A stretch of DNA of 64,000 nucleotides from Candidatus Shapirobacteria bacterium (GCA_028695445.1 JAQVIV010000001.1:6028-70027), one strand, 5' to 3'; positions 2,832 to 48,836 are shown, numbered from the stretch's first letter. Notes: a model not told the origin generated them from the sequence alone. A program made the numbers and translations.

Positions 2832-2844
2832 TAAAATTCCAGCT

Positions 2845-6699: not shown

Positions 6700-6818
6700 T
6701 GTTCAAAATAAGTTCCGATTTCTAAACAAATCTTAAATCACAATTTATAAAAAATATTAGTCTGATTGGTCTTATTGGACCGATATTTATAAGAATTAAA
6801 AATTAGAAATTTATACCC

Positions 6819-17329: not shown

Positions 17330-17366
17330 CATTGGCCGTTAATTTTTAGCCATTGGTCGTTGGCAA
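17305..17366 (+). repeat. direct repeat copy 1 (tRNA 3' end plus ~35 nt downstream)
   Basis: 'ttcaactcctgaccccgcaacatt' plus 'gg/ccgtta..tttagcc.ttggtcgttgg' repeats at 17512-17567. Confidence 0.6.
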
Positions 17367-17594: not shown

Positions 17595-17963
17595 ATGTAT
17601 AAATTCGAAAAATTAAGGGTTTGGCAATCGGCGATGGATTTGGTAGTTGAAGTTTACAAATTCACAAAACAGCTACCCAAAGAGGAAACTTATGGCCTAA
17701 GAGACCAAATAAGAAGAGCAAGCGTTTCTATTGCTTTAAACATTGCCGAAGGGACGGGAGATAAAAGCGACAAAGAATTAATAAGATATCTTTATTTATC
17801 TAAAAAGTCTCTTTTTGAAACAATAACCGGATTAAAGCTTACTCAAAGAATTTATCAACTAAAGCCAGAACAAATTTTAAAAAATTGCGATAACCTTGGT
17901 AGATCGCTTCAAGCTTTAATAAACTCTTTATCTAAAAGCCAAAAACTAAAGACTAACGACTAA
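17595..17963 (+). CDS. four-helix-bundle protein (TIGR02436-like, '23S rRNA intervening-sequence protein' family)
   Basis: 'KFEKLRVWQSAMDLVVEVYKFTKQLPKEE..GLRDQIRRASVSIALNIAEG' hallmark. Its C-terminal codons lie in the right inverted repeat. Confidence 0.7.
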   Translation: MYKFEKLRVWQSAMDLVVEVYKFTKQLPKEETYGLRDQIRRASVSIALNIAEGTGDKSDKELIRYLYLSKKSLFETITGLKLTQRIYQLKPEQILKNCDNLGRSLQALINSLSKSQKLKTND

Positions 17964-17980: not shown

Positions 17981-18054
17981 GGCAGGGTAGCTCAGGTGGT
18001 TAGAGCAGGCGAATCATAACCGTCAGGTCGTCGGTTCAAATCCGACCCCTGCCA
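17981..18054 (+). tRNA. tRNA with CAT anticodon (D arm/anticodon stem 'gctcaggtggttagagcaggcga' resembles bacterial tRNA-Ile2 and elongator Met); no encoded CCA
   Basis: Acceptor ggcaggg/ccctgcc; D gctc/gagc; loop atCATaa; T arm gtcgg-ttcaaat-ccgac. Confidence 0.65.
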
Positions 18055-18166
18055 CTTTAGGCTATCAAAGAAATCGGGTTATTAAAGAAAAAAGTTATTT
18101 CTTCTTCCAGCCCGATCTCGTTTTTTAGCTTATAGGGATGGTGTGAACGATGTTCACACCATAGCC

Positions 18167-18647: not shown

Positions 18648-19520
18648 ATGAACAACAACCTAACCTCTCTTGATGGGGCCATAAGTAAATTCCTAACTCG
18701 CTTGAAAAACGAGAACCGTTCCAGCAACACTATCATAGCATACGAAAACGACCTTAAACAGCTAGTCGAATTCATTGGCCAAGATAATGTTGTCAACGCC
18801 AATCAAATCGGTACCGACCATATTAAAAATTTTAAAAATTACCTCCTAAAAGAAAAAAAATACACTAACAAAACCGTTTCCCGAAAATTAAATTCTATTA
18901 AGTCTCTTTTTCGTTTTTTGACCGCTTCCGGGGTGATTAGCCAAGATCCCGCCAACAATATCACTCATCCAAAAATCAGTCAAAAACCACCACGAATTCT
19001 TTCTCCCCTAGAATACCGCGCCCTAAGAGATGTTTGTCGAGACGACCCAAGAAGCTATGCCATTATCGAGCTTATGCTTCAAGCGGGTTTGCGAATTTCT
19101 GAGGCGGCCAACCTAGAAGTAACCGATATCCAAGAAGATAAAATTATTGTCCGCCCCTACGAATCCCACGGAGGGCGAGTCATTCCCTTAAATAGAGCGG
19201 CCAAAAAGGCGATTGAAGATTACTTGGAAGAACGACCCAAAACCAAAAAATCAACCAACTTGTTTATTACCAAAAACGGCAATCCTTTGCTGGTAAGAAA
19301 CATCAGAAACAGCATCAATCGCTATTTCAAAATTGCTGAAATTGCCGATGTTTATGTTAATAACCTGCGCGATACTTTTGTTGTCCAGCAATTAAAAGCC
19401 GGCGTTCCTCTAAACATTGTCTCCCAAATTATCGGCCATAAGCGAGTTTCTTCAACTGAAAAATATTTAGAGCTAGTCGAAGAAAGAGAAACTGATAATA
19501 TCAAACTAAAAGAGCTCTAG
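18648..19520 (+). CDS. tyrosine-type site-specific recombinase (XerC/XerD-like)
   Basis: N-terminal SAM-like core-binding domain; C-terminal 'GLRISE', 'IIGHKRVSSTEKYLEL' (HxxR...Y) catalytic motifs. Confidence 0.75.
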   Translation: MNNNLTSLDGAISKFLTRLKNENRSSNTIIAYENDLKQLVEFIGQDNVVNANQIGTDHIKNFKNYLLKEKKYTNKTVSRKLNSIKSLFRFLTASGVISQDPANNITHPKISQKPPRILSPLEYRALRDVCRDDPRSYAIIELMLQAGLRISEAANLEVTDIQEDKIIVRPYESHGGRVIPLNRAAKKAIEDYLEERPKTKKSTNLFITKNGNPLLVRNIRNSINRYFKIAEIADVYVNNLRDTFVVQQLKAGVPLNIVSQIIGHKRVSSTEKYLELVEERETDNIKLKEL

Positions 19521-20412: not shown

Positions 20413-20487
20413 TGGTGCGCCTGCTTGGATTCGAACCAAGGACATCTACTTTATAAGAGTAGCGCTCTACCATTGAGCTACAGGCGC
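20413..20487 (-). tRNA. tRNA with TAT anticodon (predicted tRNA-Ile decoding AUA), CCA encoded
   Basis: Reverse-complement cloverleaf. Acceptor gcgcctg/caggcgc; D gctc/gagc; anticodon stem ctact/agtag; loop ctTATaa; T arm cttgg-ttcgaat-ccaag; terminal CCA. Confidence 0.6.
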
Positions 20488-22897: not shown

Positions 22898-23289
22898 AGC
22901 TCGCTTTTGAAATTAACCTGATGGCCTAACATTTTAGTTACCCTCTTTGACCATTCTGATAACCAGCGCCAAGCCGACTCAATTGATTCTTTTAAACCGG
23001 CTCGATATTCAGTTAAAGTTAGGGGCAAAATAATCTTGGGGGGTTGGGCCTGAGGAGAAGTTACTATAATTTGGCCGGTTTGGTCATCCAAAACTTGATT
23101 AGTCAAAAAGTGATCTTCTTTTTCAATTTTTTCTAAATAACCATCCAGCTCTGGGGAGAGTTTTGGAAAATGACCAATTTCAATAATATTGGCCTTCTCC
23201 TCCCCAAGACTTTCTTGAGACAATCTTTGAGGCTCTCTTTCCTTGCTGGCAAAACCGGTTGGGCTAGTATCACCTGATGCCATCTTCAC
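22894..23289 (-). CDS. small acidic hypothetical protein, translationally coupled to the downstream ATPase
   Basis: 131-aa ORF. Its stop overlaps the ATPase start (ATGA). No recognizable motifs. Confidence 0.35.
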   Translation of the reverse strand: MKMASGDTSPTGFASKEREPQRLSQESLGEEKANIIEIGHFPKLSPELDGYLEKIEKEDHFLTNQVLDDQTGQIIVTSPQAQPPKIILPLTLTEYRAGLKESIESAWRWLSEWSKRVTKMLGHQVNFKSEL

Positions 23290-23330: not shown

Positions 23331-24059
23331 TTAAAAATCACCGCCTGCCTGAGGAATAATTGACTGGGCCGCCGCCAGCAAAGATCCAAGTTCTTGACCG
23401 GTAAAGGGAGGCAAACGATTAAACTTCTCGTCAAGACAATTTTGAGGAAGAAATTTTTGCAAACGCCAAACCAGGCTCTTGGGATTAATCTTATTTTTTA
23501 AAGCAAGACTTTTTATCTCTTTGGCCAAAAGGGTCAAATTTTTTGAATTATGAATTGTCGGCACCAGAGTCGTTCGCAATTGATAATCAAGACCGCTGGT
23601 GATAATTAAAGCCAAAGATTGAATAATTCTTTCATAACTAATTTTAGTTAACAAGGAATAATTTTTTTTATCTACTTTAATATCCATGGCAATAAAATCA
23701 ATCAACCTTTTACTGATTAAATCCTCTACCACCTCAGGCCTTCCGCCATTGGTATCCAGTTTTATTAAAAGGCCTTTATTTTTAATTTTTTGGCAAAAAG
23801 AAGCTAAATCCGGTTGAATGGTTGGTTCCCCACCGGTTAGGCAAACCCCATCTAAAATTTTTTGCCGTTTGTCTAAAAAATTAAAAAAATCCTTTTCCTT
23901 AATTTCTGATAAGGAAGACTTTTTAAATTTTTTTTTGAGAACCAGATCTTTATTATGGCAATAAGGACAAGAGAAGTTGCAGCCAACCGTAAAAATAGTG
24001 CAAGCCACCTTGCCGGGATAGTCGATTAAGGTTGTTTTCTGAAGACCACCTAGTAGCAT
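23331..24059 (-). CDS. nrdG: anaerobic ribonucleoside-triphosphate reductase activating protein (radical SAM)
   Basis: 'GCNFSCPYCHNKD' CxxxCxxC, 'LTGGEPT'. Confidence 0.8.
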   Translation of the reverse strand: MLLGGLQKTTLIDYPGKVACTIFTVGCNFSCPYCHNKDLVLKKKFKKSSLSEIKEKDFFNFLDKRQKILDGVCLTGGEPTIQPDLASFCQKIKNKGLLIKLDTNGGRPEVVEDLISKRLIDFIAMDIKVDKKNYSLLTKISYERIIQSLALIITSGLDYQLRTTLVPTIHNSKNLTLLAKEIKSLALKNKINPKSLVWRLQKFLPQNCLDEKFNRLPPFTGQELGSLLAAAQSIIPQAGGDF

Positions 24060-24484: not shown

Positions 24485-26545
24485 CTACTTCTCCTTATAC
24501 CCTATTTCTTCGTCGCACCTAGGACAAAATTGCCACTCGCCTGACAAATAACCATGCTTTGGACAAACAGAAAAGGTTGGGGTAATGGAAAAATAAGGCA
24601 GTTTATAATTGGCTGTTACTTTTTGGAGCAGATTTTTAACGCTTTCGGTATCAGGCAAACTTTCCCCTAAAAAGCCATGGATGACAGTGCCACCCGTATA
24701 CTTACATTGTAATTCATCCTGATGATCCAGGGCCTCAAAAAGGTCGGTGGTGTAATCGACCGGCAAATGAGTCGAGTTGGTATAAAAAGGCGCTTCTTTC
24801 TTTTCTTGGTAATTTTTTTCATTAGCACAAATAATTTTGGGAAATTGCTCTTTATCCAGCCTGGCGAAACGATAGGCGGTGCTTTCCGCCGGTGTGGCTT
24901 CAAGATTAAACATTTCCCCAGTTTCTTGCTGGTAAATTAAAATTTTTTCCCGCATATAATCCATTACCTCTAAAGCAAAAGCTTGCCCTTCGGGGTCGGC
25001 AATATTTTTCCCCATCAAGTTAACCAAGGCCTCATTCATACCGTTTAAGCCAATGGTGTTAAAGTGGTTGCGCCAGTAAACTTTATTGCGCTGATAAATA
25101 TCAGATAAATAATGGCGGCAGTAGGGGTACAGGCCGTCGTGGGTAAATTTTTCCACCGCCTCTCTTTTAATTATCAGCGAATCTTTGGCCAAATCCATTA
25201 GACGGCCAAGGAGAGTAAAGAATTTTCTTTTGGCAAATCCCTCGGTTTTAGAGCTTGCTTTGGCCAAATAACCAATTCGAGGCAAGTTGATGGTAACCAC
25301 CCCCAAGGAACCGGTTAGGGGATTGGCAGCAAACAACCCGCCTCGCCGCCTTAATTCCCGATTATCTAAGCGCAAACGACAACACATACTTCGAGCATCG
25401 TCAGGATCCATATCAGAATTAACAAAATTAGAAAAATAGGGAATACCATATTTTCTGGTCATTTCCCAAACCGGCTCCAAATTTTTATTATTCCAATCGA
25501 AGTCCTTGGTAATTGAATAGGTTGGAATTGGGAAGGTAAAGACTCGCCCTTGAGCATCGCCCTCCATCATGGTTTCGGCAAAAGCTCGATTAATCATATC
25601 CATTTCTTTTTGAAAATCTTCATACTTATCTTGGGTTGGCTGGCCGGCAATAACAACCGTTTCCTCGCCGACCATTTTGGTAGGATGAATATCCAAAGAA
25701 ATATTGGAAAAGGGGGTTTGGAAGCCCACTCTGGTAGGAACATTCATATTAAAAACAAACTCTTGAAGAGCCTGTTTAACCTGTTTATAGGTTAGGTTGT
25801 CATAACGAACAAAAGGAGCCAAATAGGTATCAAAATTGGAGACTGCTACTGCTCCAGCCACCTCGCCTTGAATGGTATACATAAAATTAACAATCTGCCC
25901 TAGAGCCGAAGAAAGGTGCCTTGGAGGAGCACTGTTAACCTTGCCGGAAACGCCGCCAAATCCCTTAATTAAAAAGTCTTTTAAGTCCCAGCCGGTACAA
26001 TAGGCCGAAAGGGAAGACAAATCATGAATGTGAAGATCGCCTTGGCGATGAGCCTTTCTTACCTCTCGAGAATAAATTTTATTAAGCCAAAAATTGGCCG
26101 AAATTATACTGGCCACATGATTATTCAAGCCCTGTAAAGAATAGGTCATGTTGGCATTCTCCTTTACTCGCCAGTCGCCCTGATTAAGATATTTTTCTGT
26201 TAACTCATCGGCATCGACCAAACTGCTAACGCTTCTTAATTTTTGGTGAAGCTGACGATAAAGGGTGTAGGCGCTATGGACTTCTTCGTGAGCACGCCTT
26301 AATAGAGTCTGCTCAACAATATCTTGAACCTGTTCTACCTCGGGAGTAATGGAAGAATTAAACCGCTTCTCAAGTTCTAAAACCACCTCTTTGGTTAGGC
26401 GGCGAACCTCTTGAACATCATCTTTACCGGCAGCCTTAAAAGCGGCCTTAATCGCCCTTCCAATCTTATTAGGACTAAAGGCCACTATCCGGCCATTTCT
26501 TTTTTTGATCCTGGTAATTTTTGATTTTATTCCTCCTCTAACCAT
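24485..26545 (-). CDS. nrdD: anaerobic ribonucleoside-triphosphate reductase large subunit (class III RNR), ending right after the Zn ribbon
   Basis: N-terminal ATP-cone ('KITRIKKRNGRIVAFSPNKIGRAIKAA'), conserved class III core, C-terminal 'CPKH...CPRC' Zn site; stops 9 residues later, before the 'RxxGY' glycyl-radical loop. Confidence 0.85.
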   Translation of the reverse strand: MVRGGIKSKITRIKKRNGRIVAFSPNKIGRAIKAAFKAAGKDDVQEVRRLTKEVVLELEKRFNSSITPEVEQVQDIVEQTLLRRAHEEVHSAYTLYRQLHQKLRSVSSLVDADELTEKYLNQGDWRVKENANMTYSLQGLNNHVASIISANFWLNKIYSREVRKAHRQGDLHIHDLSSLSAYCTGWDLKDFLIKGFGGVSGKVNSAPPRHLSSALGQIVNFMYTIQGEVAGAVAVSNFDTYLAPFVRYDNLTYKQVKQALQEFVFNMNVPTRVGFQTPFSNISLDIHPTKMVGEETVVIAGQPTQDKYEDFQKEMDMINRAFAETMMEGDAQGRVFTFPIPTYSITKDFDWNNKNLEPVWEMTRKYGIPYFSNFVNSDMDPDDARSMCCRLRLDNRELRRRGGLFAANPLTGSLGVVTINLPRIGYLAKASSKTEGFAKRKFFTLLGRLMDLAKDSLIIKREAVEKFTHDGLYPYCRHYLSDIYQRNKVYWRNHFNTIGLNGMNEALVNLMGKNIADPEGQAFALEVMDYMREKILIYQQETGEMFNLEATPAESTAYRFARLDKEQFPKIICANEKNYQEKKEAPFYTNSTHLPVDYTTDLFEALDHQDELQCKYTGGTVIHGFLGESLPDTESVKNLLQKVTANYKLPYFSITPTFSVCPKHGYLSGEWQFCPRCDEEIGYKEK

Positions 26546-26738: not shown

Positions 26739-29666
26739 TTACTCCCACTGATCACAAACCATCTTAAAAGGACAAAAGTCGCACCAAAAACCAGGCTTGG
26801 GGGTAAAGTCACTTTGATTAATTTGTTCTATTGTTTTAACCAAGTTTTTTCTTGCTTGGGCTAGCTCCTGTCGAGTTTTTTTAACCGAAACCTTTTGACC
26901 GGTGGCTAAAAAATAAAAAGTTCCGGTTAAATTCTTAGGATCGGCTCCTAAAATGCCCCGATCGGCCGCCGCTAAAAGGTAAAGGTTCATCTGAAGGCTT
27001 TTGTTGGCTTGTTTTTGATCCAAAGGCTGACCAGTTTTATAGTCAATAATTTCCCAAGCATTTTGCCTCTTGTCAACCCGGTCAAAAACACCAGCAATTT
27101 TAATTTTTTCTGTTAAGAAAAAATTGAATTTCCTTTCTAAAAAATGAGGAAGATTATCTTGATTAAAATCTTCCTGATAAAAACGCTCTAGCATTGCTCG
27201 GCCCTCTTTAAAAAGGCGCTTTTCATGATGGAAAGAAGCGTAGCCAAAGGAAAGCCAATTAGCCTGATACAAATTCAATAAATCTTTCAGACCAGTCTTT
27301 CCCTTTGGGGCAGTTTTAAAAAATTGATGCAGGGTCTGATGAATAGTAATACCAAAGCTCTGAACTCCGCTAGGAGCAATGGGAATTTTTTGTAAATACT
27401 GATGGCGATATTGGGCCGGACAGTGCTCAAAAGCAGTGATTTGAGAAAAGGAAAAATGATCAATTGGCTGTTTGGCAACAAGAGGAGTCTCCGGCTCGAT
27501 TTTGACTGTTTTAAACTTCAACAAGGATAATTGATTGGTTTTGGGCGGCTGATGATCAACCGCCTCCCGACCCAAAGATTCATAAACAAAGGGGGAAATT
27601 CTCAAAGAGCGCTTCCCTTCGCCATAAACCCGGGAGGCGGTTAAAAAAAGCCTTTCTTTGGCCCGGGTCATACCAACATAAAAAAGCCGCCGTTCCTCTT
27701 GCTGGTGATAGTCTCCCTGAGGCAAGATTTCTCGAATTAGTTGATCTGGAATAGGAATTTGCTCCCTTCGACGATGGGTGGGAAAACGGCCAGAAACCAA
27801 ATTAACCAGAAAAACCACCCCAAACTCTAACCCCTTAGCTGAATGAACAGTCAAAATGTTAACTTTATCTTCTAGAAACCAATCGTCATTATTGGCCGCT
27901 GGCGACTCGCCCAAATCAAGAGCCAACCTTAACCAGCTAACAACCGAACGAAGACTGGCATCATCATGGTTCATCTCATAGACAGATAAACGGTCAAAAA
28001 ACTTGGCAATGTTGGCTACCCTCTTTTCCTCTCGAGGAGAATTAGCCTGAGTCAAACTTTTGAGCAAGCCGGAATCTTCCAAAAAATAAAAAAGGAGCTG
28101 ACCGGCACTTTTTTCTTTCGCTAACTCCCAATGACGATTAACCATTGTCAATAACTGGTCCAGTTTTTCTTGGGTTTCAAGAGAAAGAGAGGGCAGTCTG
28201 ACCTTATTAGCCTTGTTTTCATCCTGATCCAAAACCAGGTTAACCGCCTTAAACAAACTAACGGCGGTTTTTCGGGAAAAACTACCCAAAAGAGCCAAAT
28301 CTCGGCCAGACAAATTAATCGGCTGATGAGCCAGCAGGCGATAAAAAGAGGCATCATCCCCCGGATCAGCTAAAAAAAATAGATAAGCGATCAAATTTTT
28401 AATTTCTTCCTGGCGAAAAAGCTGGCCCGGTCCCAAAAACTGATAGGGAATCCCCATCCAGGAAAGAGCTTTCATAAAAGGACCGGCATGGTTATTGGCC
28501 CGAACCAAAATGGCAAAATCTGACCAGGCAAGCTTTGGCCTTTTTTCCTTTAAGGACTCAATAATTTTAGCCACTTCTTCTGCCTCAGAATTAACTTGAG
28601 CAGTATAAACAAATTCGACTCCCTCCCCTGAACCGGTAAGACTTTGCAGATTTTTATCAATGCCAAGCCTTGCTTCTAGAGTATCGGGGTTATTGTGCTG
28701 AATCAGTCGATAGGCGGCGTCTAAAATCTTTTGACCTGACCGATAATTTTTAGTTAAAACTATTGACTTGGCCTGTTTATAGTCGGCCATAAACTGCAAA
28801 ACATTAGACACCGCCGCACCTCGAAACCGATAAATCGACTGAGAGTCATCAGCCACCACCGAAAGGCCGGAGTTTTTATCGGGCGGAACCAAAAGTTTAA
28901 TTAGATGGTATTGGGCGATGTTGGTATCCTGAAACTCGTCAACCAAAAAAAATTTAAACTTATTTTGATAACCGGCCAAAACATTGGGCCGCCGACGAAA
29001 TAGTTTTAATGTTTGGGTAATTAAATCACCAAAATCCATTAAGCTTTCTTTTTGCTTTAAAGATTCATAATCCCAATAAGCCTGAGCCAACTCCAGGTGT
29101 TTTTTACTTTCTATTTTCACTTCTTTTTCTTTTAATTTTAAATTTTTAGCTTCGAATTGTTTGGCCCAAGCAAAATATTGCTTGGGGGTAATATCCTCAT
29201 CTTGCAGCCGAGAAAAATGATTTAAAAGACCAGTGATGAATCGATTGGGGTTGCCAAGGGGACGAAAGTAATCTAGATTCAAGTCGAATAGGTGATCGGT
29301 TAAAAATTGGACAGTTTCCGATTGACTCATCAAAACAAAGCCCGGGTCTAAACCTATAGCGGCCGCCTCATCTTTTAAGATGCGATCACAAAAGGCATGA
29401 AAAGTCATAATCCAGGCATCGGTATAACCATAGGGAAGGGCAATATCAACTCGCTCTTCCATCTCAAGAGCAGCCTTTTCAGTGAAAGTAAGAGCTAAAA
29501 TTTCTTCGGGAGAAGCTTGCTTTTTAGCAATTAAATATTTAATTTTTTCAGTAATAACAGTGGTTTTTCCTGTTCCGGCCCCCGCCACGATCAGCAAGGG
29601 CGAAGACAAATGTTCAACTGCTTGTTTTTGAGCCGAATTTAATTTCTTCGCTTCTTTTAACATCAC
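26739..29666 (-). CDS. UvrD-family helicase fused to a C-terminal RecB/Cas4-like PD-(D/E)XK nuclease with Fe-S cysteines (AddA-like helicase-nuclease)
   Basis: Walker A 'AGAGTGKTTVIT', 'VDEFQDTN'. C-terminal 'HCPAQYRHQYL', 'IIDYKTGQ', 'WCDFCPFKMVCD' nuclease/4-Cys motifs. No addB partner in the window. Confidence 0.7.
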   Translation of the reverse strand: MMLKEAKKLNSAQKQAVEHLSSPLLIVAGAGTGKTTVITEKIKYLIAKKQASPEEILALTFTEKAALEMEERVDIALPYGYTDAWIMTFHAFCDRILKDEAAAIGLDPGFVLMSQSETVQFLTDHLFDLNLDYFRPLGNPNRFITGLLNHFSRLQDEDITPKQYFAWAKQFEAKNLKLKEKEVKIESKKHLELAQAYWDYESLKQKESLMDFGDLITQTLKLFRRRPNVLAGYQNKFKFFLVDEFQDTNIAQYHLIKLLVPPDKNSGLSVVADDSQSIYRFRGAAVSNVLQFMADYKQAKSIVLTKNYRSGQKILDAAYRLIQHNNPDTLEARLGIDKNLQSLTGSGEGVEFVYTAQVNSEAEEVAKIIESLKEKRPKLAWSDFAILVRANNHAGPFMKALSWMGIPYQFLGPGQLFRQEEIKNLIAYLFFLADPGDDASFYRLLAHQPINLSGRDLALLGSFSRKTAVSLFKAVNLVLDQDENKANKVRLPSLSLETQEKLDQLLTMVNRHWELAKEKSAGQLLFYFLEDSGLLKSLTQANSPREEKRVANIAKFFDRLSVYEMNHDDASLRSVVSWLRLALDLGESPAANNDDWFLEDKVNILTVHSAKGLEFGVVFLVNLVSGRFPTHRRREQIPIPDQLIREILPQGDYHQQEERRLFYVGMTRAKERLFLTASRVYGEGKRSLRISPFVYESLGREAVDHQPPKTNQLSLLKFKTVKIEPETPLVAKQPIDHFSFSQITAFEHCPAQYRHQYLQKIPIAPSGVQSFGITIHQTLHQFFKTAPKGKTGLKDLLNLYQANWLSFGYASFHHEKRLFKEGRAMLERFYQEDFNQDNLPHFLERKFNFFLTEKIKIAGVFDRVDKRQNAWEIIDYKTGQPLDQKQANKSLQMNLYLLAAADRGILGADPKNLTGTFYFLATGQKVSVKKTRQELAQARKNLVKTIEQINQSDFTPKPGFWCDFCPFKMVCDQWE

Positions 29667-29881
29667 AGTCTAAATTATAACAAGAAGGCCAAACAAATTT
29701 GTAATCCAAAAAAAGACAGTCTTAAACCGGCGCTTCTCTTCTTTTGTTTTCTTGGAATAAATACGGTAAAGTATTTATTGCCCAAAACATCTGGACAAAG
29801 TAAGCTTTTATTCTTTTTTTAAAAAATACGATATCGTATTTTTTAAGACAAAAAACAAGGAAATCGAAAAAAGAGATTAAA

Positions 29882-32209: not shown

Positions 32210-33151
32210 ATGGAAAAGTACGATCTGATTATTATTGGTGCCGGCCCAGCTGGTTTGGCCGCCTCCATCTATGCCAGCCGTTACAATATCAACCATTTAG
32301 TCTTGGGGCAAAATTTAGGTGGTACTATTGCCTGGGCCCATAAGGTAGAAAACTATCCTGGTTTCCCCTCAATTTCCGGCTTCGAATTAGCTCAAAATTT
32401 CCTAAACCATGCCCAATCTCTGGGAGGAAAAATTGAAAACCAAGAGGTGGTTAACCTGGAGAAGATTAACGGTTTTCTAATCTTAACAGCCGGAAACCAA
32501 AAAAAATATCAGGCCAAAACATTGATTATTGCCACTGGCACTAAAAGAAGAAAGTTAAACGTTCCTGGCGAAAAAGATTATTTAGGCAAGGGTGTTTCGT
32601 ATTGCGCTACTTGCGACGCCGCCTTTTACAAAAATAAAGATGTTGTCGTTGTCGGCGGGGCTAACTCGGCCTGTTCCGGAGCTCTTCATTTGGCTCGTTT
32701 TGCTAATCGGGTTTATTTAATTTATCGAAAGGGCGACCTCAGGGCCGATCCTGCCTGGGTAACCGAAGCTAAACAAACCAAAAACATCACTATTATTTAT
32801 AATACTAATGTCACCGCCATTGAAGGTGATGGCCAAAAAGTAACCCTGGTCAAACTCGATCGGCCCTACCGGAAAAAAAACAATCTTAAAGCAGCCGGGG
32901 TTTTCGTTGAGATTGGCGGAGCTCCCATTATCGATCTGGCTAAAAAATTGGGCCTTAAAACTGACCGAGATGGTTTTGTTATCACCGACAACTTAATGGC
33001 CACCAATGTTTCGGGAGTGTTTTGTGCCGGCGATGTTAACGCCTGGCAAAAACAATGCCAACAGGCCATTATCGCCACCGCCGAAGGGGCCATTGCCACC
33101 CTGGGCGTTTATCAATACCTTGGCAAGGTTCCTCGTAAACCAGCTCCTTGA
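32210..33151 (+). CDS. trxB: thioredoxin-disulfide reductase
   Basis: FAD motif 'DLIIIGAGPAGLAA', redox 'CATCD', NADPH motif 'VVVGGANSA'. Confidence 0.85.
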   Translation: MEKYDLIIIGAGPAGLAASIYASRYNINHLVLGQNLGGTIAWAHKVENYPGFPSISGFELAQNFLNHAQSLGGKIENQEVVNLEKINGFLILTAGNQKKYQAKTLIIATGTKRRKLNVPGEKDYLGKGVSYCATCDAAFYKNKDVVVVGGANSACSGALHLARFANRVYLIYRKGDLRADPAWVTEAKQTKNITIIYNTNVTAIEGDGQKVTLVKLDRPYRKKNNLKAAGVFVEIGGAPIIDLAKKLGLKTDRDGFVITDNLMATNVSGVFCAGDVNAWQKQCQQAIIATAEGAIATLGVYQYLGKVPRKPAP

Positions 33152-33266: not shown

Positions 33267-34070
33267 ATGACTAAAATCATCAAAAGAGTCTTGCTTTGTC
33301 CGCCAGACTATTTCCAAATCCGCTATCAAATTAATCCTTGGATGAAAAATGGTCAAGTCAATAAGACCCGAGCCAAAAACCAGTGGCTAAATTTAGTCAA
33401 TCTTTGCCAAAAACTTTCTATCCGAACAGAAACCATTACCCCCCAAGCAAGTTTACCAGACATGGTTTTTGCCGCTGATCAGGGCTTGATTAAAGACAAC
33501 TCAGTAATTTTGGCCCGTTTTCACCACCAACAACGCCGGCCAGAAACAAAAATATATCAAGACTGGTTTAGAAAACAAGGGTTCCAGCTCCTAAGACTGC
33601 CTGCCAGTCTTTGCTTTGAAGGAGGAGATGCTCTCATAGTTAACAACAATATTTTTATCGGCCATGGTTTTCGTACCAGCCCTCAAAGCCCAAGAGCGAT
33701 AGAAAAATTAGCAAAATCACCCGTTATTGACCTTGGGCTAATTAATCCCCACTTTTACCACCTGGACACCTGTCTTTTCATTCTCAATCCTAAAACCGCT
33801 TTTTATTATCCACCGGCTTTTGATCAAACCTCCAGTGACAAGTTGGCTAAGTTCTTTTCTAAACTTATTCCCCTAACCAAAAAAGAAGCTTTTTCTTTGA
33901 CCGCCAACAGCCTCAACACCGATCACCAAGTCATTATCCAAAGAGGAGCGCCGATATTTGCCCAAAAACTAGCGCAACTTGGCTATCGGGTCCACCAGGT
34001 TAATGTTAGTGAATTTTTCCGATCTGGTGGCGGAATTCACTGCTTAACCTTAACTACTCAAACTAATTAA
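33267..34070 (+). CDS. amidinotransferase-superfamily hydrolase (DDAH / arginine deiminase-like, CtlX-like)
   Basis: 'LLCPPDYFQIRYQINPWM' N-terminus; C-terminal catalytic 'GGGIHCLTL' Cys motif. Confidence 0.5.
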   Translation: MTKIIKRVLLCPPDYFQIRYQINPWMKNGQVNKTRAKNQWLNLVNLCQKLSIRTETITPQASLPDMVFAADQGLIKDNSVILARFHHQQRRPETKIYQDWFRKQGFQLLRLPASLCFEGGDALIVNNNIFIGHGFRTSPQSPRAIEKLAKSPVIDLGLINPHFYHLDTCLFILNPKTAFYYPPAFDQTSSDKLAKFFSKLIPLTKKEAFSLTANSLNTDHQVIIQRGAPIFAQKLAQLGYRVHQVNVSEFFRSGGGIHCLTLTTQTN

Positions 34071-41573: not shown

Positions 41574-42626
41574 ATGATTATCCTTGGTATCGAAACCTCT
41601 TGCGATGAAACCTCGGTGGCTATCGTTGAGAATGGCCGCCGGGTGCTATCGGTAGCCACGGCTTCATCAGAGGAACTGCACCAAAAAACCGGTGGTATTG
41701 TCCCGGAATCGGCCGCTCGAGAACAACTCTCCTGTATGATTCCGGTTCTAGAAGAAACTCTAATCCAATTCCAACCTAAAATAAAACCGCAAAAAGCTTT
41801 GGAAAAAATTGATGCTTTGGCAGTCACTTATGGGCCCGGATTAATCGGCTCGTTATTAGTCGGAATCGAAACCGCCAAAGCCCTAAGCTTGGTTACCGGT
41901 AAACCATTAGTGCCGGTTAATCACCTAGAAGCCCATATTTTTGGCAATTGGCTGGAGAAAAGACCTGATCAATTTCCGAATCTGCCAGGCTTGGCCTTAA
42001 TCGCCTCCGGCGGTCACACCGAACTGATTTTAGTCAATAAAAAGGATAAAAAATACCAGTTTACCTTCCTTGGCGGCACCAGAGACGACGCCTCAGGCGA
42101 ATGTTTTGATAAGTGTGCCCGTGTTTTGGGCTTGGACTATCCGGGAGGGCCGGCCATCGCCCAAAGCGCTCAAGGGGCTCCGGAAAAACTGATTGGTAAT
42201 CCTCCCCTTAGTCTGCCTCGGCCAATGGTTGATCAAAAAAATCTTGACTTTTCTTTTTCCGGATTAAAAACGGCCGTTATTAACCAGGTCCGGAAACTTA
42301 GAGAAGAGGGCTTTTTAAACGAGGAGACGAAAAACTTTTTTGCTTGGGAAATTCAAGAGGCCATTACCGACTGTTTGGTCAAAAAAACTATTCAGGCGGC
42401 GAAAAAATACCCGGTTGGGTCACTGCTCTTGGGCGGTGGGGTAACCGCTAATCAAGTATTGCGAGAAAAGCTTCAGGAAGAAGCCAATAAATTAAATTTT
42501 AATCTTTTTATCCCCGGAATTCGTTATTGCACCGATAATGCCACCATTGTTGCCGCCGCCGCTTATTTTAACTACCAACCCATCCCCTGGTCAAAAATTA
42601 CCCCCCAGCCAAGTCTTTCATTTTAA
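41574..42626 (+). CDS. tsaD: tRNA N6-adenosine threonylcarbamoyltransferase
   Basis: 'ILGIETSCDETSVAIV', 'HLEAHI', Kae1/TsaD family. Confidence 0.85.
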   Translation: MIILGIETSCDETSVAIVENGRRVLSVATASSEELHQKTGGIVPESAAREQLSCMIPVLEETLIQFQPKIKPQKALEKIDALAVTYGPGLIGSLLVGIETAKALSLVTGKPLVPVNHLEAHIFGNWLEKRPDQFPNLPGLALIASGGHTELILVNKKDKKYQFTFLGGTRDDASGECFDKCARVLGLDYPGGPAIAQSAQGAPEKLIGNPPLSLPRPMVDQKNLDFSFSGLKTAVINQVRKLREEGFLNEETKNFFAWEIQEAITDCLVKKTIQAAKKYPVGSLLLGGGVTANQVLREKLQEEANKLNFNLFIPGIRYCTDNATIVAAAAYFNYQPIPWSKITPQPSLSF

Positions 42627-42655: not shown

Positions 42656-43684
42656 TCACCAAACACCGCTAATTTCCTGACCGCAATTTGGGCATTGACC
42701 CTCTTTTAGGCTCGACCTAACCAAAAAATAACCGTCTCTTTTAACCAACTCTTGGCCACAGCCAGGACAATAAGTTGAGGCGTTTTTGGTGCTGGCAATA
42801 TTCCCCAAGTATACATAATTTAGACCAGCCTTTTGGCCAATTTGATAGGCTTTGATTAATTTTTCCCGAGAGGTTGGCTTCCTGTCCATCATCTGATAAT
42901 CGGGATGAAAGGCCGACAAGTGCCAGGGAATATCAGGCGAAACTTTTTTAATAAACTTGGCCATTTGGGTTAATTCTTTGACCGAATCATTTTCTCCCGA
43001 AATTACTAAGGTTGTCACCTCTGTCCAAATCCCGGCCTGATGATATTTTTTAATATTTTCCAAAACCGGAGCCAGTTTTGCCCCACCGCAAACTTCCCGA
43101 TAAAAATCATCTCGAAAACTCTTTAAGTCAATATTGACCGCATCAAGATGGTCTTTAGTTAACCGAAATGATTCCGGTGATTGATAACCGTTGGTAACGA
43201 AAATATTTTTTAAGCCCTTTAGGTGGGCTAGTCTCATCGTATCAAGAGCATAGTCAATAAAAACAGCCGGTTCATTATAGGTGTAGGCAATCGAGGCGCA
43301 ATTTTTCTTCAGGGCCAGGCTAGCCAATTGCTTGGGGGTAAATTTTTTTGAATATTGTTTAATTTGCCGTAGTGGTTCTTTTTCTTGTTTTACCCCCTGC
43401 GATTGAAACCAGTTCTGGCAAAACTGGCAGGCAAAGTTACACCCCAGGGTGCCAAAAGACAAGGCCTTACTTCCAGGCAAAAAATGAAATAAGGGCTTTT
43501 TTTCCACCGGATCAAGGCTTGGCCCAACCGCCCAACCATAAACCAAAGAATAAAGCTGACCATCTTTATTTTCCCTAACCGAACAAGCCCCTCTTTGACC
43601 ATTGGTAATTTGACAATAGCGCCAACAAGCCTGGCAAAGAACCCGATTATCTTCTAGCTTTTTAAATAGCTTTGCTTTTCTCAT
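42656..43684 (-). CDS. radical SAM enzyme of the AmmeMemoRadiSam system type (PflA-like) with C-terminal Zn ribbon
   Basis: 'GCNFACQFCQNW' CxxxCxxC, N-terminal Cys cluster, C-terminal 'CPGCG...CPNCG'. Confidence 0.6.
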   Translation of the reverse strand: MRKAKLFKKLEDNRVLCQACWRYCQITNGQRGACSVRENKDGQLYSLVYGWAVGPSLDPVEKKPLFHFLPGSKALSFGTLGCNFACQFCQNWFQSQGVKQEKEPLRQIKQYSKKFTPKQLASLALKKNCASIAYTYNEPAVFIDYALDTMRLAHLKGLKNIFVTNGYQSPESFRLTKDHLDAVNIDLKSFRDDFYREVCGGAKLAPVLENIKKYHQAGIWTEVTTLVISGENDSVKELTQMAKFIKKVSPDIPWHLSAFHPDYQMMDRKPTSREKLIKAYQIGQKAGLNYVYLGNIASTKNASTYCPGCGQELVKRDGYFLVRSSLKEGQCPNCGQEISGVW

Positions 43685-43697
43685 ACTAACAATGATT

Positions 43698-45095
43698 TCA
43701 AATATTTTTAACTGTTATTTTCGGCTTCCCTTGCCGCCAAGCTTTAATAATCGGCTCAACAAAACGCCATTGGGCCATGACTTCATCAGTGCTAACAAAC
43801 AAAGTTTGGTCACCGATTAAAATATCTAAAAGAAGTTTTTCATAGTCGCTAGCAAATTTTTCACCGTTAAAATTAGCCCGATAATCAAAGCTCATCTTGG
43901 CCTCTGAAAGACGATCGACCAGGCCTGGTTTTTTAACCAACAGCGTCAAAAAGATCGTTTCTTTAGGTTTGACTCGATAAACTAGAACATTCTGGCAAGA
44001 CGAACTTTGGTGAAAACACTTAGACGGTTGTTTAAAAAAAATTTTGGCTTCAACTAAATTTTTCTTCATTGCCTTGCCGGCCTCCAAAATTAAAGGAACA
44101 CCAGCTAAATTACCATCAGAAAAAGAAGTACTAATTTTAAAATAGGTTTCGGTCGAAGAATTCTTCTTTACCCCCAGCTGGTTCCGATAACCATCGTATT
44201 GGGCTCGAACGGTTTTTTTCTCTACTTGACCAGGAGACAAAATCGCCAAATTTTTTAAAGCCTTGGCTCGGGTTTTTCTGATTGCCCCTGAAGAAGAATC
44301 TTGGGGTTGATCCATCGTCAAAAGGGCCAAAAATTGCAGTAAATGGTTTTGGCCCACGTCCCTCAGGGCCCCCAAACCGTCATAAAAAGCCGTCCTGCCA
44401 TCGGCTACTTTTTCTTTCTCCCAAAGCCTAACCTCAACTTTATCAATAAATTGCTTATTCCAAATTGGGGTTAAAAAAGTATTATCAAACCTTAAAGCCA
44501 AAATATTTCTCAAGTTCTCTTTGGCCAAGTAGTGATCAATTCGATAAACCTGATTTTCGGCAAAAAGACTACCTAATAGTTGATCTAGCTTTTTAGCGGT
44601 AGGCAAATCCTGGCCAAAAGGTTTTTCTAGAGCTATCCTAGTCCAAGAACTATTATTACAAGTAACCACCAAATTATTCTCTTTTAAACCGACCAAAATT
44701 GTCTGATAAAAATGGGGGGAAACGGCCAAATAATAAAGTTTGTTGGTGCAACTACTTGCCTGTCGATCAATTTTTCTTACTCTCTTGGCCAAATCAACAA
44801 ATGAGGAAGGACAAGTAAAATCGGCCTTAAAATAAGAAAAAATGGCTAAAAAATCATTCCAAAGACTCTTTCGGGGGAAACCCTCTTCGATCATAATTTT
44901 TTCCAAATGAGCCCGCAGGTCGTTATCATCCCAATCACGCCGGGAAAGACCAAGAACCAAAAAATCTTTTTTGGGTAATTTCCCCTGGAGAAACAAATTA
45001 AATAAAGCCCATAATAATTTAGTTTTAACTAAATCACCGGTAATACCAAAAACAATCAAGGTGGTTGGTCTTTTAGTCATCAAATTATTCGGCAA
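43698..45095 (-). CDS. zwf: glucose-6-phosphate 1-dehydrogenase-like
   Basis: 'VFGITGDLVKTKL' NADP motif, 'RIDHYLAKE' G6PD active-site signature, 'EKPFG'. Confidence 0.65.
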   Translation of the reverse strand: MPNNLMTKRPTTLIVFGITGDLVKTKLLWALFNLFLQGKLPKKDFLVLGLSRRDWDDNDLRAHLEKIMIEEGFPRKSLWNDFLAIFSYFKADFTCPSSFVDLAKRVRKIDRQASSCTNKLYYLAVSPHFYQTILVGLKENNLVVTCNNSSWTRIALEKPFGQDLPTAKKLDQLLGSLFAENQVYRIDHYLAKENLRNILALRFDNTFLTPIWNKQFIDKVEVRLWEKEKVADGRTAFYDGLGALRDVGQNHLLQFLALLTMDQPQDSSSGAIRKTRAKALKNLAILSPGQVEKKTVRAQYDGYRNQLGVKKNSSTETYFKISTSFSDGNLAGVPLILEAGKAMKKNLVEAKIFFKQPSKCFHQSSSCQNVLVYRVKPKETIFLTLLVKKPGLVDRLSEAKMSFDYRANFNGEKFASDYEKLLLDILIGDQTLFVSTDEVMAQWRFVEPIIKAWRQGKPKITVKNI

Positions 45096-46602
45096 AAGAT
45101 TCCACAGTATAAATGAAAATTTCTGTCGCTGGATCTAAATAACAATCTCTATTAAGGCCCATTTTTTGAGCGCAAATCTCTCCCAAAAAGTCCTCTTTAG
45201 TCCAATCGCCTTCTTGGGCCACTTGAGGAAGAAATGTCCCCGTTAAGGTATCCTGCTTTAAATAAACACCATGCTTGCCAAGTTCAACTTCTTCCCAAGA
45301 GGTCACTTTTTTAAGCGGAGAAAGAAGAGAAATTTCAATAGTAATTTCTTCTAATTCATCTTTGGTAACGGGCGAAAAGCGGGGATCATTGGCGGCCGCG
45401 GCAATAGCCATATTGGCCACTGCTTGCCAAACCGGCTCCTTAGCCTCAAAACCGCCAAGACAACCCCGAAGCTGACCATTTTTTTTGAGAGTAACAAAAA
45501 CAGCCCTTTTGGTTTCCAAAGAAGCCTTGGGGGCTTTTTTTAGGGGGATTTGGCCGGTAGCCAAATAACCAGTTAAAGCTTCTCTGGCCCAAGAGAGTAA
45601 TATTTGTTTCTCTTCCTGGTCAATTCCAACAAAGTCTTGTTCCTGTTTTAGCCAAAAAGCCACTGCCCCATAACCAACCACCTGTTCTGTCTGACCAGAA
45701 ACTACCCCCGAATCGCCTTGAGCCAAAATTTTGGCCTCTTTTAGACCAATTTTACTGGCAACCAACAAACCCACTCTAATGGCATCAGCCCCGCAGGCAA
45801 AAGTATCAACCGCCGGATATTGATTGGCCAAATTGGCCAGTGTTTGGCCAAACCTTTCCCTACTACCGGAGGCAATCGCCGCCAGGGTTTTAGTATCAAC
45901 CTTTTGGGCCGTGATTTGATCGGGATAATGAGACAAATCAGAAGAAATTACCAGCAAGGTTTTTGGGTCATTGGCCAAAACTTGAGTTAATTTTTGAGCC
46001 AAAGCCAAAAGATCAGAATCTTTAACCTGACCGATTAAAATTGGAACAATGCTAAAATCAGATAAAACCGTTTGTAAAAAAGGCAACTCCACTTCAAGAA
46101 CATGATCATCCTGATGAGTCCGACGATTAACAACAATTACTCCTTGATCAACCAAATTAGCAATCAAATTTTTATCTGTCGACACCTGACCCAAGGGGGT
46201 CTGCCAAAAATCATGATCATCCAAAACAATTTTGTCAGTTGATGATCGGTGAGTGGTTCCCAATAAAATTACCCGATTAAAACCGCTACTTTTGAGAAGA
46301 TTAAAACCGTAAGCGGCCACTGGGCCAGAATACGACCAGCCGGCATGAGGGACAATAATTATTTGCGGTGGCAAAGAAAAGGCAAAGTTAGCCTCAGCCA
46401 AAAAAGTCTTTATTTGTTTCCTGGCTTCCCCCTCTTCTTCAGGATAAAATTGTCCGGCTACTGCCGGCAAGCGAACCAAAAAATCTTTCTCATTATTCAT
46501 GATGGCACCCTTCTCTAATTTTAGCAAAACTGCCAAAGTTACCAAAAACAAAGCCACGGCCCCGAAAACAAAGAAACCCAACACTCTTCGCTTATTTTTC
46601 AT
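45085..46602 (-). CDS. fused MEMO1-family / AMMECR1-domain protein with N-terminal TM
   Basis: MEMO1 'AGQFYPEEE...IIVPHAGWSYSGPVAAYGF'; AMMECR1 'RAVFVTLKKNGQLRGCLGGF...NDPRFSPV'. Confidence 0.65.
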   Translation of the reverse strand: MKNKRRVLGFFVFGAVALFLVTLAVLLKLEKGAIMNNEKDFLVRLPAVAGQFYPEEEGEARKQIKTFLAEANFAFSLPPQIIIVPHAGWSYSGPVAAYGFNLLKSSGFNRVILLGTTHRSSTDKIVLDDHDFWQTPLGQVSTDKNLIANLVDQGVIVVNRRTHQDDHVLEVELPFLQTVLSDFSIVPILIGQVKDSDLLALAQKLTQVLANDPKTLLVISSDLSHYPDQITAQKVDTKTLAAIASGSRERFGQTLANLANQYPAVDTFACGADAIRVGLLVASKIGLKEAKILAQGDSGVVSGQTEQVVGYGAVAFWLKQEQDFVGIDQEEKQILLSWAREALTGYLATGQIPLKKAPKASLETKRAVFVTLKKNGQLRGCLGGFEAKEPVWQAVANMAIAAAANDPRFSPVTKDELEEITIEISLLSPLKKVTSWEEVELGKHGVYLKQDTLTGTFLPQVAQEGDWTKEDFLGEICAQKMGLNRDCYLDPATEIFIYTVESFAE

Positions 46603-46718
46603 AAACCAATTTTAACAGTTCTTGCCTTCCAGCACCGGAATCTAGAGGATAATAATAGTTTATCGTTCTGTTGGATCCCGGATCCGGCAGAAGCTGATTT
46701 TCCGATCAATTTATTTGT

Positions 46719-46724
46719 TGCTAT
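46719..46724 (+). promoter_or_regulatory. candidate extended -10 (TGcTATAAT) for valS
   Basis: TATAAT 16 nt upstream of the valS ATG, preceded by TG. Confidence 0.35.
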
Positions 46725-46739
46725 AATAAATTAATTATC

Positions 46740-48836
46740 ATGGATAAACGCTACCAACCCGAAAAAACTGAAAAAGAGATTAGCGCTCTTTGGGAAAAGA
46801 GTGATTGCTTTACTCCTAAAGTTGATCCCAAAAAAGAGCCTTTTGTTATTACCCTGCCTCCCCCCAATGTTACCGGCGGCCTTCACGCCGGCCATGCTAT
46901 GTACACAATTGAGGATATTATGGCCCGCTTTAATCGAATGAAAGGAATACCAACCCTGTTTCTGCCCGGTTTTGACCATGCCTCAATTGCAGTAGAATAT
47001 TTAGTTAGTAAACAGATTAGAAAAAAAGGAAAGACAAAGTTTGATCTTGGCAAAGAAGAATTCCTAAAACAGGCCCACCAATTTGCCGATCAGTCTCGGG
47101 ATTACATAAAAAAACAGTTAAAACTGTTAGGCTTTTCTTTAGACTGGTCGCGAGAGGCCTACACCATGAGCCAGGATTACTCTGAAGCAGTCAAGACTGC
47201 TTTTAATCACCTAAAAGAAAGGGGGCTGATTTATCAGGGGGAAACTATTGTCAATTGGTGCCCCGATTGTCAAACGGTTCTTTCCGATCTAGAAAATGAA
47301 CATCTTGAAAAAAGAGGTCAACTTTATTACCTTAAATACGGCCCCGTTACCATCGCTACCACCCGACCAGAAACCATGTTTGCCGATGTGGCGGTGGCCG
47401 TTCATCCTGATAACAAGCAATATAAATCCCTGATTGGCCAAAAAATTCCCCTTCCTTTAACAAAACGAAAGATTCCGATTATTACTGATGAGACAGTTGA
47501 CCCGGAATTTGGCACCGGGGCCTTAAAAATTACCCCCGCCCATGACGAGTTAGATTTTCAAATCGGCAAGCGCCACCACCTCAAAACCCTAATTGCCATC
47601 GACAAAGAGGGCAGACTAACTAAAATCACCGGTCCCTTCCAGGGCTTGACTGCTCAAGAAGCCAGAAAGAGGGTGATCGAAAAGCTAGAGAAACAAGGCC
47701 TGTTGGTTAAAACCGAAACCATCACCCACTCGGTTGGCCATTGCCAGCGTTGCGGAACAACAACCGAACCGCAAATTTCCCTTCAGTGGTTTGTCAGGAC
47801 CAAGCCTTTGGCCAAAAGGGCTATTCAAGCGGTTAAAAAAGGCCAGATTAAAATCGTTCCCGATCATTTTGCTAAAATTTATTTTCATTGGCTAGGAAAT
47901 ATTCATGATTGGTGTATTTCCCGACAGCTCTGGTGGGGCCACCCAATTCCGGTTAAGGGGGAATCGGCCATTTTAGACACTTGGTTTTCTTCTTCTCTTT
48001 GGCCAATGGCTACCTTGGGCTGGCCAAAAAAAACAGCTGATTTTGCCTACTTTTATCCCAATACTATTCGAGAAACCGGTTACGACATCATCTTCTTTTG
48101 GGTCGCCCGAGAAATTATGATGTGTCTGGAATTAACAGGTAAGATCCCTTTCAAAACCGTTTATCTTCACGGTTTGGTCCGCGATGAAAAAGGCCGTAAA
48201 TTTTCCAAAACCAAAGGCATTGGTTTTGATCCGGTAGAAACCATTGCTAAAAACGGGGCCGACGCCCTAAGAATGGCCTTGGTTTTAGGCAATGCTCCCG
48301 GAGCCGACGTCTCCCTGCCGGAAGAAAAAGTAATCAGCATGCGCAATTTTACCAACAAAATTTGGAATGCCACCCGATTCATTATAATGAACCAGAACAA
48401 TTTTAATTTAAAGATTAAAAGTCCGAAGTTAAATTTGCCTTCTTTTGGTAAAAATAATGAGGATGATCAAAAAATTTTAAAATCACTGGAAAAAACTATT
48501 GACAGCGTTACCAACCATATTGATAACTATCGTTTTGGCCAAGCCGCCGAAGATATTTACGGCTTTTTCTGGCATAAATTTTGTGATATTTATATTGAAC
48601 AAACCAAAGACCGGCTTTATGATCAAGATAATCCTGGTGGCCAGCAAGAAGCTCTATTAGTATTGCTCTTCGTCTTAAAAAAAAGCCTAAAACTACTTCA
48701 TCCTTTTATGCCCTTTGTCACCGAGGAGATTTGGACTAATCAGCTAGGAGAAAAAACCCCTTTAGCAATTTCACCCTGGCCGAAAATAACAGTTAAAAAT
48801 TCAAAGTCAAAAATTAAAAATCCTAATAGAAATTAG
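46740..48836 (+). CDS. valS: valine--tRNA ligase (compact form, 698 aa, no long C-terminal coiled coil)
   Basis: 'PPPNVTGGLHAGHA' HIGH motif, editing-domain 'TTRPETMFADVAVAVHP', 'KFSKTKG' KMSKS. Confidence 0.8.
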   Translation: MDKRYQPEKTEKEISALWEKSDCFTPKVDPKKEPFVITLPPPNVTGGLHAGHAMYTIEDIMARFNRMKGIPTLFLPGFDHASIAVEYLVSKQIRKKGKTKFDLGKEEFLKQAHQFADQSRDYIKKQLKLLGFSLDWSREAYTMSQDYSEAVKTAFNHLKERGLIYQGETIVNWCPDCQTVLSDLENEHLEKRGQLYYLKYGPVTIATTRPETMFADVAVAVHPDNKQYKSLIGQKIPLPLTKRKIPIITDETVDPEFGTGALKITPAHDELDFQIGKRHHLKTLIAIDKEGRLTKITGPFQGLTAQEARKRVIEKLEKQGLLVKTETITHSVGHCQRCGTTTEPQISLQWFVRTKPLAKRAIQAVKKGQIKIVPDHFAKIYFHWLGNIHDWCISRQLWWGHPIPVKGESAILDTWFSSSLWPMATLGWPKKTADFAYFYPNTIRETGYDIIFFWVAREIMMCLELTGKIPFKTVYLHGLVRDEKGRKFSKTKGIGFDPVETIAKNGADALRMALVLGNAPGADVSLPEEKVISMRNFTNKIWNATRFIIMNQNNFNLKIKSPKLNLPSFGKNNEDDQKILKSLEKTIDSVTNHIDNYRFGQAAEDIYGFFWHKFCDIYIEQTKDRLYDQDNPGGQQEALLVLLFVLKKSLKLLHPFMPFVTEEIWTNQLGEKTPLAISPWPKITVKNSKSKIKNPNRN

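Follow-up and report, generated by a model that had tools for sequence, protein, structure and literature searches.

What does a glucose-6-phosphate dehydrogenase (G6PD) gene, zwf, reveal about an AmmeMemoRadiSam system when it lies between the genes of that system? The question is raised by positions 42656-46602 of a 64,000-nt stretch from Candidatus Shapirobacteria bacterium (GCA_028695445.1 JAQVIV010000001.1:6028-70027), the whole of which is called the window below. Here, three open reading frames (ORFs) in the same direction on the minus strand encode a fusion of protein B (Memo) and protein A (AMMECR1), termed B-A, then Zwf, then a radical S-adenosylmethionine (SAM) enzyme. MEMO1 and AMMECR1 are human disease-linked proteins whose function is approached by comparison mainly through the bacterial three-gene system, for which a conserved partner gene would provide valuable information. 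Burroughs and colleagues reportedly described Memo-AMMECR1-radical SAM contexts in 2019 and reportedly linked the system to nucleotide-base or isoprenoid modification. Judged from its sequence, the locus is a complete AmmeMemoRadiSam system in the ordinary fused and anchored B-A form, and zwf is probably a passenger on the B-A promoter that gives no clue to the reductant of the system. The genes and domains at the centre of this argument are as follows.

45085..46602, minus strand: fused protein B-A, 505 aa, hydrophobic helix plus Memo plus AMMECR1 (ORF, TIGR04336, TIGR04335, Pfam, AlphaFold2 (AF2), Foldseek)
45655..46473, minus strand: Memo (protein B) domain of B-A, residues 44-316 (TIGR04336 domain coordinates)
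45094..45603, minus strand: AMMECR1 (protein A) domain of B-A, residues 334-503, with LRGCLGG (TIGR04335)
43698..45080, minus strand: zwf, glucose-6-phosphate dehydrogenase, 460 aa from ATG (TIGR00871, Pfam, motifs, start comparison)
42656..43684, minus strand: AmmeMemoRadiSam radical SAM enzyme, 342 aa, with N-terminal Cys4, CxxxCxxC core and C-terminal Cys4 zinc ribbon (TIGR04337, Cys conservation, AF2)

All AmmeMemoRadiSam components are found within 42656-46602 on one strand, with zwf in between, and an ORF scan of the opposite strand of this interval revealed no competing ORF of 80 aa or more. The three NCBIfam models of the system all scored above their cutoffs, confirming the AmmeMemoRadiSam assignment made by a sequence-only reading of the window: TIGR04336 (protein B) matched residues 44-316 over the full-length profile with 238.5 bits (cutoff 26), TIGR04335 (protein A) matched residues 334-503 with 171.5 bits (cutoff 99), and TIGR04337 matched the radical SAM enzyme with 374.2 bits (cutoff 220). 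Pfam also assigned Memo and AMMECR1 to B-A and Radical_SAM to the third protein.

The site residues of B-A are intact. In the Memo part, H86, H118, D222, H225 and C270 are invariant in a 26-sequence alignment and represent putative metal ligands; by alignment, we take them to be the counterparts of human MEMO1 H49/H81/D189/H192/C244. In the AMMECR1 part, which can be aligned to PH0010 and MM0484, LRGCLGG occupies residues 378-384, of which L378, R379, G380, C381 and G383 do not vary among 26 homologs. The AF2 model of B-A (pLDDT 90, pTM 0.61) shows a helix at residues 2-34, two confident domains and low-confidence linkers, and Foldseek matched it to MEMO1 (3bcz, TM-score 0.81) and PH0010 (1vaj, TM-score 0.84). 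The sequence-only reading had described a 505-aa protein with a transmembrane (TM) anchor, a MEMO1 domain and an AMMECR1 domain carrying LRGCLGG; both domains were thus borne out, and the hydrophobic helix at the N terminus proved genuine and conserved. A fixed Memo/AMMECR1 interface is not supported, given the pTM of 0.61 and the low-confidence linkers.

The third gene encodes the cognate radical SAM enzyme, as the sequence-only reading had claimed from CxxxCxxC and two further Cys clusters. The core motif C82-x3-C86-x2-C89 is conserved in 28 of 29 sequences, and the accessory clusters are C17/C20/C24/C34 at the N terminus and C306/C309/C331/C334 at the C terminus. Overall, the Cys residues are kept in 22-28 of the 29 sequences, and they are invariant, core motif included, in 28 further homologs. 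A generic PflA or activase paralog was rejected, the scores being far below the cutoffs of TIGR02493 (42.7 versus 231.75), TIGR02494 (41 versus 174.35) and YjjW (51.2 versus 250.2). A sequence search against solved structures gave no match for this enzyme, and the closest solved fold to its AF2 model (pLDDT 95, pTM 0.93) is the pyruvate formate-lyase (PFL) activating enzyme, with a TM-score of 0.75-0.80 and an E-value of about 1e-13. Because the core of the model is PFL-activase-like, the substrate of the enzyme is probably large or a protein; two extra Cys4 modules adjoin this core. No glycyl-radical enzyme was found at the locus. The anaerobic ribonucleotide reductase NrdD (24485-26545) lies 18 kb off with its own radical SAM neighbour, a small NrdG-like/activase-like gene at 23331-24059; this pair points to an anaerobic way of life and to a further radical SAM enzyme in need of reductant.

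The gene between them is a G6PD gene, in agreement with the sequence-only reading, which had recognized it by RIDHYLAKE. Its product passed the zwf equivalog model TIGR00871 (427.2 bits versus a cutoff of 400.6), carries Pfam G6PD_N and G6PD_C, and aligns over its full length with solved G6PDs (best PDB match 9emm, 4e-85). The coenzyme and catalytic motifs GITGDL, EKPFG, RIDHYLAKE and QNHLLQ are intact, and most Patescibacterial Zwf homologs (81 of 120) likewise have Ala in place of Gly in RIDHYLGKE. Of the three proteins, Zwf has diverged least. In the 94%-identical relative L081, Zwf is 97% identical, versus 95% for B-A and 83% for the radical SAM enzyme; in L083 the corresponding values are 90%, 79% and 82%. 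From these features we infer that the zwf product would be an ordinary, working housekeeping G6PD of the NADP type.

An 11-nt overlap of zwf with the fusion gene had been reported, which we doubt because it rests on a mechanical TTG start (43698-45095, minus strand, 465 aa). The junction reads ...GAA TAA TTTG ATG ACT AAA; all clade relatives begin Zwf at that Met (M-x-K-x-PTTL), and the gene caller on an identical contig also gives 460 aa. Most likely, therefore, the start of zwf is at 45080 and the two genes are separated by a 4-nt gap.

How widespread are the fusion and the zwf adjacency? For the proteins, we compared the best 120 database matches each for B-A and the radical SAM enzyme; for the genomes, we used 80 loci among those listed from a scan of species-representative genomes. 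All of the best 120 B-A matches hold both domains at about 500 aa, some of them named 'protein B/protein A' by JGI, and the fusion aligned over both domains in 80 of the 80 loci listed, which span Patescibacteria, Omnitrophota, Bacteroidales, Planctomycetota, delta-proteobacteria and others. A hydrophobic segment ahead of Memo is present in 91 of the 120 best B-A homologs. As far as these comparisons reach, the fused, anchored B-A is the normal form in Patescibacteria and occurs in several other phyla. The anchored fusion, which had been put forward as a hint to the substrate or reductant, loses that value, since the form is common.

The zwf adjacency is distributed quite differently from the radical SAM gene: zwf lies within 8 kb of none of the 80 fused loci listed, versus 30 with a radical SAM gene nearby. 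When 1400 ORFs neighbouring the 80 loci listed were clustered, the radical SAM gene was the sole widely recurrent partner. Lesser neighbours (a spermidine-synthase-like membrane protein, a MiaB-like radical SAM protein, RsmE, a nitroreductase and a DsbA-like protein) each recurred in at most 14 of these 80 loci, and none is a G6PD. The order B-A/zwf/radical SAM was found only in relatives with at least 73% identity in B-A and at least 69% in Zwf. These comprise relatives with B-A identities of 94%, 79% and 74%, and from the zwf side the order extends down to 69%; it is repeated on 10 contigs from at least eight samples, obtained from JGI, NCBI, ENA and Logan. The conservation of zwf in the operon thus holds within this clade and fails elsewhere.

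The nearest outgroup, the Shapirobacteria metagenome-assembled genome L001 (B-A 69%, aminoacyl-tRNA synthetase (aaRS) 75%, radical SAM enzyme 76% identity), keeps the ATP-cone/aaRS/B-A/radical SAM synteny with 22 nt from B-A to the radical SAM gene and no zwf. Because B-A stands directly by the radical SAM gene in L001, a single zwf insertion in a narrow Shapirobacteria-like clade is the parsimonious explanation. Outside this clade, the next Zwf matches after 69% identity stand at 51%, and many of the distant ones are zwf-gnd fusions, a frequent form there with a length of about 780-800 aa. Both outgroup zwf genes that we examined belong to a DUF6909-zwf-gnd-cyclase cluster (L087-L090) and overlap gnd. 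Inside the clade, most flanking genes are equally syntenic, so the conservation of the triad is mostly a matter of shared descent.

We propose that a canonical gene for NADP-type G6PD was inserted once between the B-A and radical SAM genes, in the ancestor of the Shapirobacteria-like clade. Zwf would convert glucose-6-phosphate and NADP+ to 6-phosphogluconolactone and NADPH, performing its usual housekeeping job and borrowing the expression of the operon. A TrxB-like reductase at 32210-33151 represents a housekeeping NADPH consumer in the window. The zwf adjacency, being a single lineage-specific insertion, says little on what AmmeMemoRadiSam does and is not suited for inferring its reductant or substrate; the locus does not reveal the chemistry of the system.

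Spacing is consistent with such borrowed expression. The features flanking the three genes are as follows.

46603..46739, no strand assigned: intergenic region that separates the B-A gene from the divergent class-I aaRS gene and likely serves the three-gene unit as promoter region
46740-48836: class-I aaRS gene, divergent from the B-A gene
41574-42626: tsaD, on the other flank, convergent to the three genes

In the window, B-A and zwf are 4 nt apart and zwf and the radical SAM gene 13 nt apart, and terminator prediction on the minus strand of the window gave none between these genes. From these short spacers, it is plausible that the three genes form one unit in this strain, transcribed from the promoter region upstream of B-A. 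An extended -10-like element, TGTTAAAAT (46603-46625), ends 6 nt before the long-form ATG of B-A and is conserved in five relatives; with the element so placed, the transcript for the anchored isoform could be leaderless. The B-A/aaRS intergenic region also contains a near-perfect palindrome of 27 nt, TTCTGCCGGATCCGGGATCCAACAGAA (46666-46692, minus-strand reading). It was rejected as an operator, being absent from all relatives and thus a strain-specific insertion.

The spacing changes on the other side of zwf. In most clade relatives, zwf is separated from the radical SAM gene by a spacer of 130-410 nt that holds two AAATAC-N6-GTATTT palindromes and, before the radical SAM start, a strong Shine-Dalgarno (SD) sequence, so the tight zwf-to-radical SAM linkage is specific to this strain. 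The spacers of L081 and L083, but not that of L084, fold well into a hairpin with a T-run behind it, and a terminator scan of the relatives' spacer called none. The tight link to an NADPH-generating enzyme, the second hint of the sequence-only reading, is therefore weakened on both counts, being limited to one clade and, in most of its members, interrupted ahead of the radical SAM gene.

The AAATAC-N6-GTATTT boxes look like operators for a regulator, as far as sequence comparison goes. In the relatives, they are found upstream of the radical SAM gene at 10977/11040 in L081, 10938/11002 in L083, 6665 in L084 and 5688/5953 in L093. In the window, the zwf-radical SAM spacer with its boxes is deleted, and a pair of 18 bp each, about 65 nt apart (29759-29776 and 29824-29841), lies upstream of an AddA-like helicase-nuclease gene (26739-29666, minus strand). 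A mobile element or a structured RNA was considered and rejected: the boxes and their spacing alone are shared, there is no Rfam match, and only one compensatory pair was seen.

Several observations weigh against regarding zwf as a passenger. The triad is intact in L093/L094 though both flanks differ, and the B-A-to-zwf junction is tight in every clade member (overlap, 4 nt or 11 nt); some selection for keeping the triad together may operate. Moreover, zwf stands apart from its usual partner gnd, and neither gnd nor pgl was found in the 64-kb window (tblastn for gnd, Pfam; the search was confined to the window). A weak tblastn match at 33615-33806 turned out to be an ADI/DDAH-family protein. 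Finally, the case for co-transcription is one of gene spacing.

Some of these observations would favour a functional recruitment of Zwf, in which it serves as a dedicated NADPH source that passes electrons, via a flavodoxin or ferredoxin reductase, to the [4Fe-4S] cluster of the radical SAM enzyme or to Memo/AMMECR1 chemistry, and in which selection keeps the gene in place. The tight junction on all clade contigs, the retention of the triad as a block in L093/L094 and the detachment of zwf from gnd, unlike the outgroup zwf genes, all fit this explanation, as do the strong purifying selection on zwf and the need of radical SAM enzymes for a low-potential reductant. However, zwf is missing near the 80 fused loci listed, no redox partner recurs across lineages, and no flavodoxin or ferredoxin-NADP reductase gene was found at the locus or in the 64-kb window. 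The long spacer of the relatives, with its boxes, strong SD and, in two of them, hairpin and T-run, suggests separate transcription of the radical SAM gene. B-A is predicted to lie on the outer side of the membrane, out of reach of NADPH, and the second radical SAM enzyme of the window, the NrdG-like one, has no such dedicated partner. We consider recruitment improbable.

A neofunctionalized dehydrogenase, acting on a sugar-phosphate-like AmmeMemoRadiSam intermediate and not on glucose-6-phosphate, is much harder to sustain. The score is modestly above the equivalog cutoff (427 versus 400.6), the branch is long (the step from 69% to 51% identity) and the usual gnd neighbour is lost, yet the motifs for substrate, coenzyme and catalysis have all been conserved (GITGDL, EKPFG, RIDHYLAKE and QNHLLQ), their types are identical to those of gnd-linked Patescibacterial Zwf, and the alignment to solved G6PDs is full-length; such a change of substrate is very unlikely. 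That a chimeric assembly or binning error placed zwf between the system genes is next to impossible, since nothing beyond the general risk of metagenome-assembled genomes speaks for it and the order is repeated on 10 contigs from at least eight independent samples and four data sources, with uniform GC, so that independent assemblies rule it out.

With zwf regarded as a passenger, the N terminus of B-A may hold a more informative clue. Two features bear on this.

46501..46602, minus strand: codons 1-34 of B-A, MKNKRR plus 21 hydrophobic residues plus KLEKGAI, predicted N-terminal anchor (Kyte-Doolittle, AF2, conservation)
46498..46500, minus strand: internal ATG (Met35), possible alternative start that would give a 471-aa anchor-less product (conservation, Met over-representation)

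Codons 1-34 are predicted to form an uncleaved signal-anchor or TM helix. The Kyte-Doolittle maximum of the N terminus is 2.7, and the hydrophobic segment is kept at the protein level in relatives of 73-94% identity. In the same scan, none of the 120 radical SAM homologs had a hydrophobic N terminus; 17 Zwf matches were dismissed as the Rossmann beta-1 strand and not signals. The long forms of B-A vary in the type of signal. A canonical lipobox (e.g. LSGC, LAGC) was found in nine Patescibacteria-type homologs. Gram-negative-type lineages (Omnitrophota, Bacteroidales, Planctomycetota) carry cleavable signal peptides with AxA-like sites straight before Memo, e.g. ...LGASSWA with the break before SDMIKEPNVAGAFY, and the remaining long forms, the window protein included, have an uncleaved hydrophobic anchor. 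In delta-proteobacteria, too, the fused proteins are of the lipoprotein or signal-peptide type. The charges flanking the anchor are mildly asymmetric (+2.8 versus +1.4; N > C in 59 of 92) and do not by themselves fix its orientation. The signal-peptide and lipobox variants argue for export, and thus for extracytoplasmic catalytic domains, so that B-A, with its Memo metal site and the Cys-containing cleft of AMMECR1, is probably tethered to the membrane and outward-facing.

The radical SAM enzyme, for its part, would work in the cytoplasm, and at least 23 loci combine an export-signal B-A with a signal-less radical SAM gene. Taken together, B-A may act outside the cytoplasm and its radical SAM partner inside, a picture that we put forward tentatively and hold to be rather unlikely. 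Two arrangements could reconcile the compartments. The PFL-activase-like radical SAM enzyme might modify B-A, or a precursor, before export, as in the maturation of exported sulfatases. Alternatively, the conserved Met upstream of Memo might be a second start, so that an isoform in the cytoplasm could reach the radical SAM enzyme. If the separation of compartments were confirmed, it would point to an envelope- or lipid-directed reaction, to maturation before export or to dual isoforms, and the clue to the substrate would be the compartment (cell envelope or lipid), not zwf.

The second arrangement was examined at Met35. This Met is retained in all close relatives; among the 91 long-form homologs, 64 have a Met 4-20 aa ahead of the Memo motif, where about 12% would be expected; and 26 database entries start at a Met just before Memo. 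The SD-like sequence GAGAAGGG lies 7 nt upstream of the Met35 ATG. Across the long forms, however, the SD frequency was 23% at the internal ATG, 20% at the long-form start and 13% in the background. An internal promoter ahead of Met35 (TTGGTA-16-TGyTAAAAT) was not upheld because the synonymous-site conservation did not reach significance (7 of 12 codons, against 40% over the whole gene, P = 0.15). Dual start sites for B-A are therefore conceivable, and neither the SD statistics nor the synonymous-site test gives them support. The literature searched reported no function for AmmeMemoRadiSam, nothing mechanistic and nothing on B-A export signals or a compartment split; the 2019 Burroughs paper lay outside that search.

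The surroundings of the locus are unremarkable for its host. The GC content is even throughout the region, the nearest named relatives are 'Patescibacteria group bacterium' and Candidatus Shapirobacteria, and the window contents are typical for a small Patescibacterial genome (FtsH, TGT, YidC, RNase P, GroEL, cell-wall genes, and NrdD with its activase-like radical SAM gene). Two further regions were observed. A 23S-rRNA-IVP/bAvd-like gene (17595-17963) lies between tRNA-Met genes (17260-17330 and 17981-18055), adjoined by a tyrosine recombinase gene (18648-19520) and tRNA-Ile with anticodon TAT (20413-20487). At 20555-23289, a 780-aa protein with weak STAND-NTPase/HerA-like matches is accompanied by a 131-aa ORF without a family match, which may represent a defence-type module. 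In L081, a diversity-generating-retroelement-like set, not present in the window, lies between the aaRS and B-A genes (2624-7864) and encodes a 775-aa Laminin_G_3 protein, a bAvd-like protein, an RVT_1 reverse transcriptase and a 182-aa ORF.

How does the locus compare with known systems? The pairing of a cytoplasmic radical SAM enzyme with an export-signal protein may be likened to the anaerobic sulfatase-maturating enzyme and its exported sulfatase, but there is no sequence relationship, and the radical SAM enzyme described here has no SPASM domain by NCBIfam or Pfam. The Patescibacterial zwf-gnd pairs and fusions belong to the same family as the window zwf, with the same motifs and about 45-51% identity; in contrast to them, the window zwf stands alone, embedded in an unrelated operon. 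Among solved folds, PflA (3c8f, 3cb8, 8fo0) comes nearest to the radical SAM core, and activase families are the closest hidden Markov models outside the system. Unlike PflA, the enzyme carries an additional Cys4 domain at the N terminus and a zinc ribbon at the C terminus, and its locus lacks a glycyl-radical enzyme; going by its modelled fold, it may work in an activase-like manner on a protein or peptide.

Human MEMO1 (3bcz, 7kq8, 7l5c) and the archaeal AMMECR1 homologs PH0010 (1vaj) and MM0484 (1zq7) share the folds and the site residues of B-A. These solved proteins are separate, soluble and without an N-terminal extension, the alignments beginning at their residues 6-8, whereas the window protein joins both domains in one chain through a low-confidence linker and has an export-type N terminus. 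The closest counterpart remains the AmmeMemoRadiSam system itself (TIGR04335/TIGR04336/TIGR04337): all three models are passed, and the Memo ligands, LRGCxG, CxxxCxxC, both Cys4 clusters and the clustering of the genes are shared. The window differs from it in the fusion of A and B as B-A behind an anchor, which is a common sub-type, and in the interposed zwf, which belongs to this clade only.

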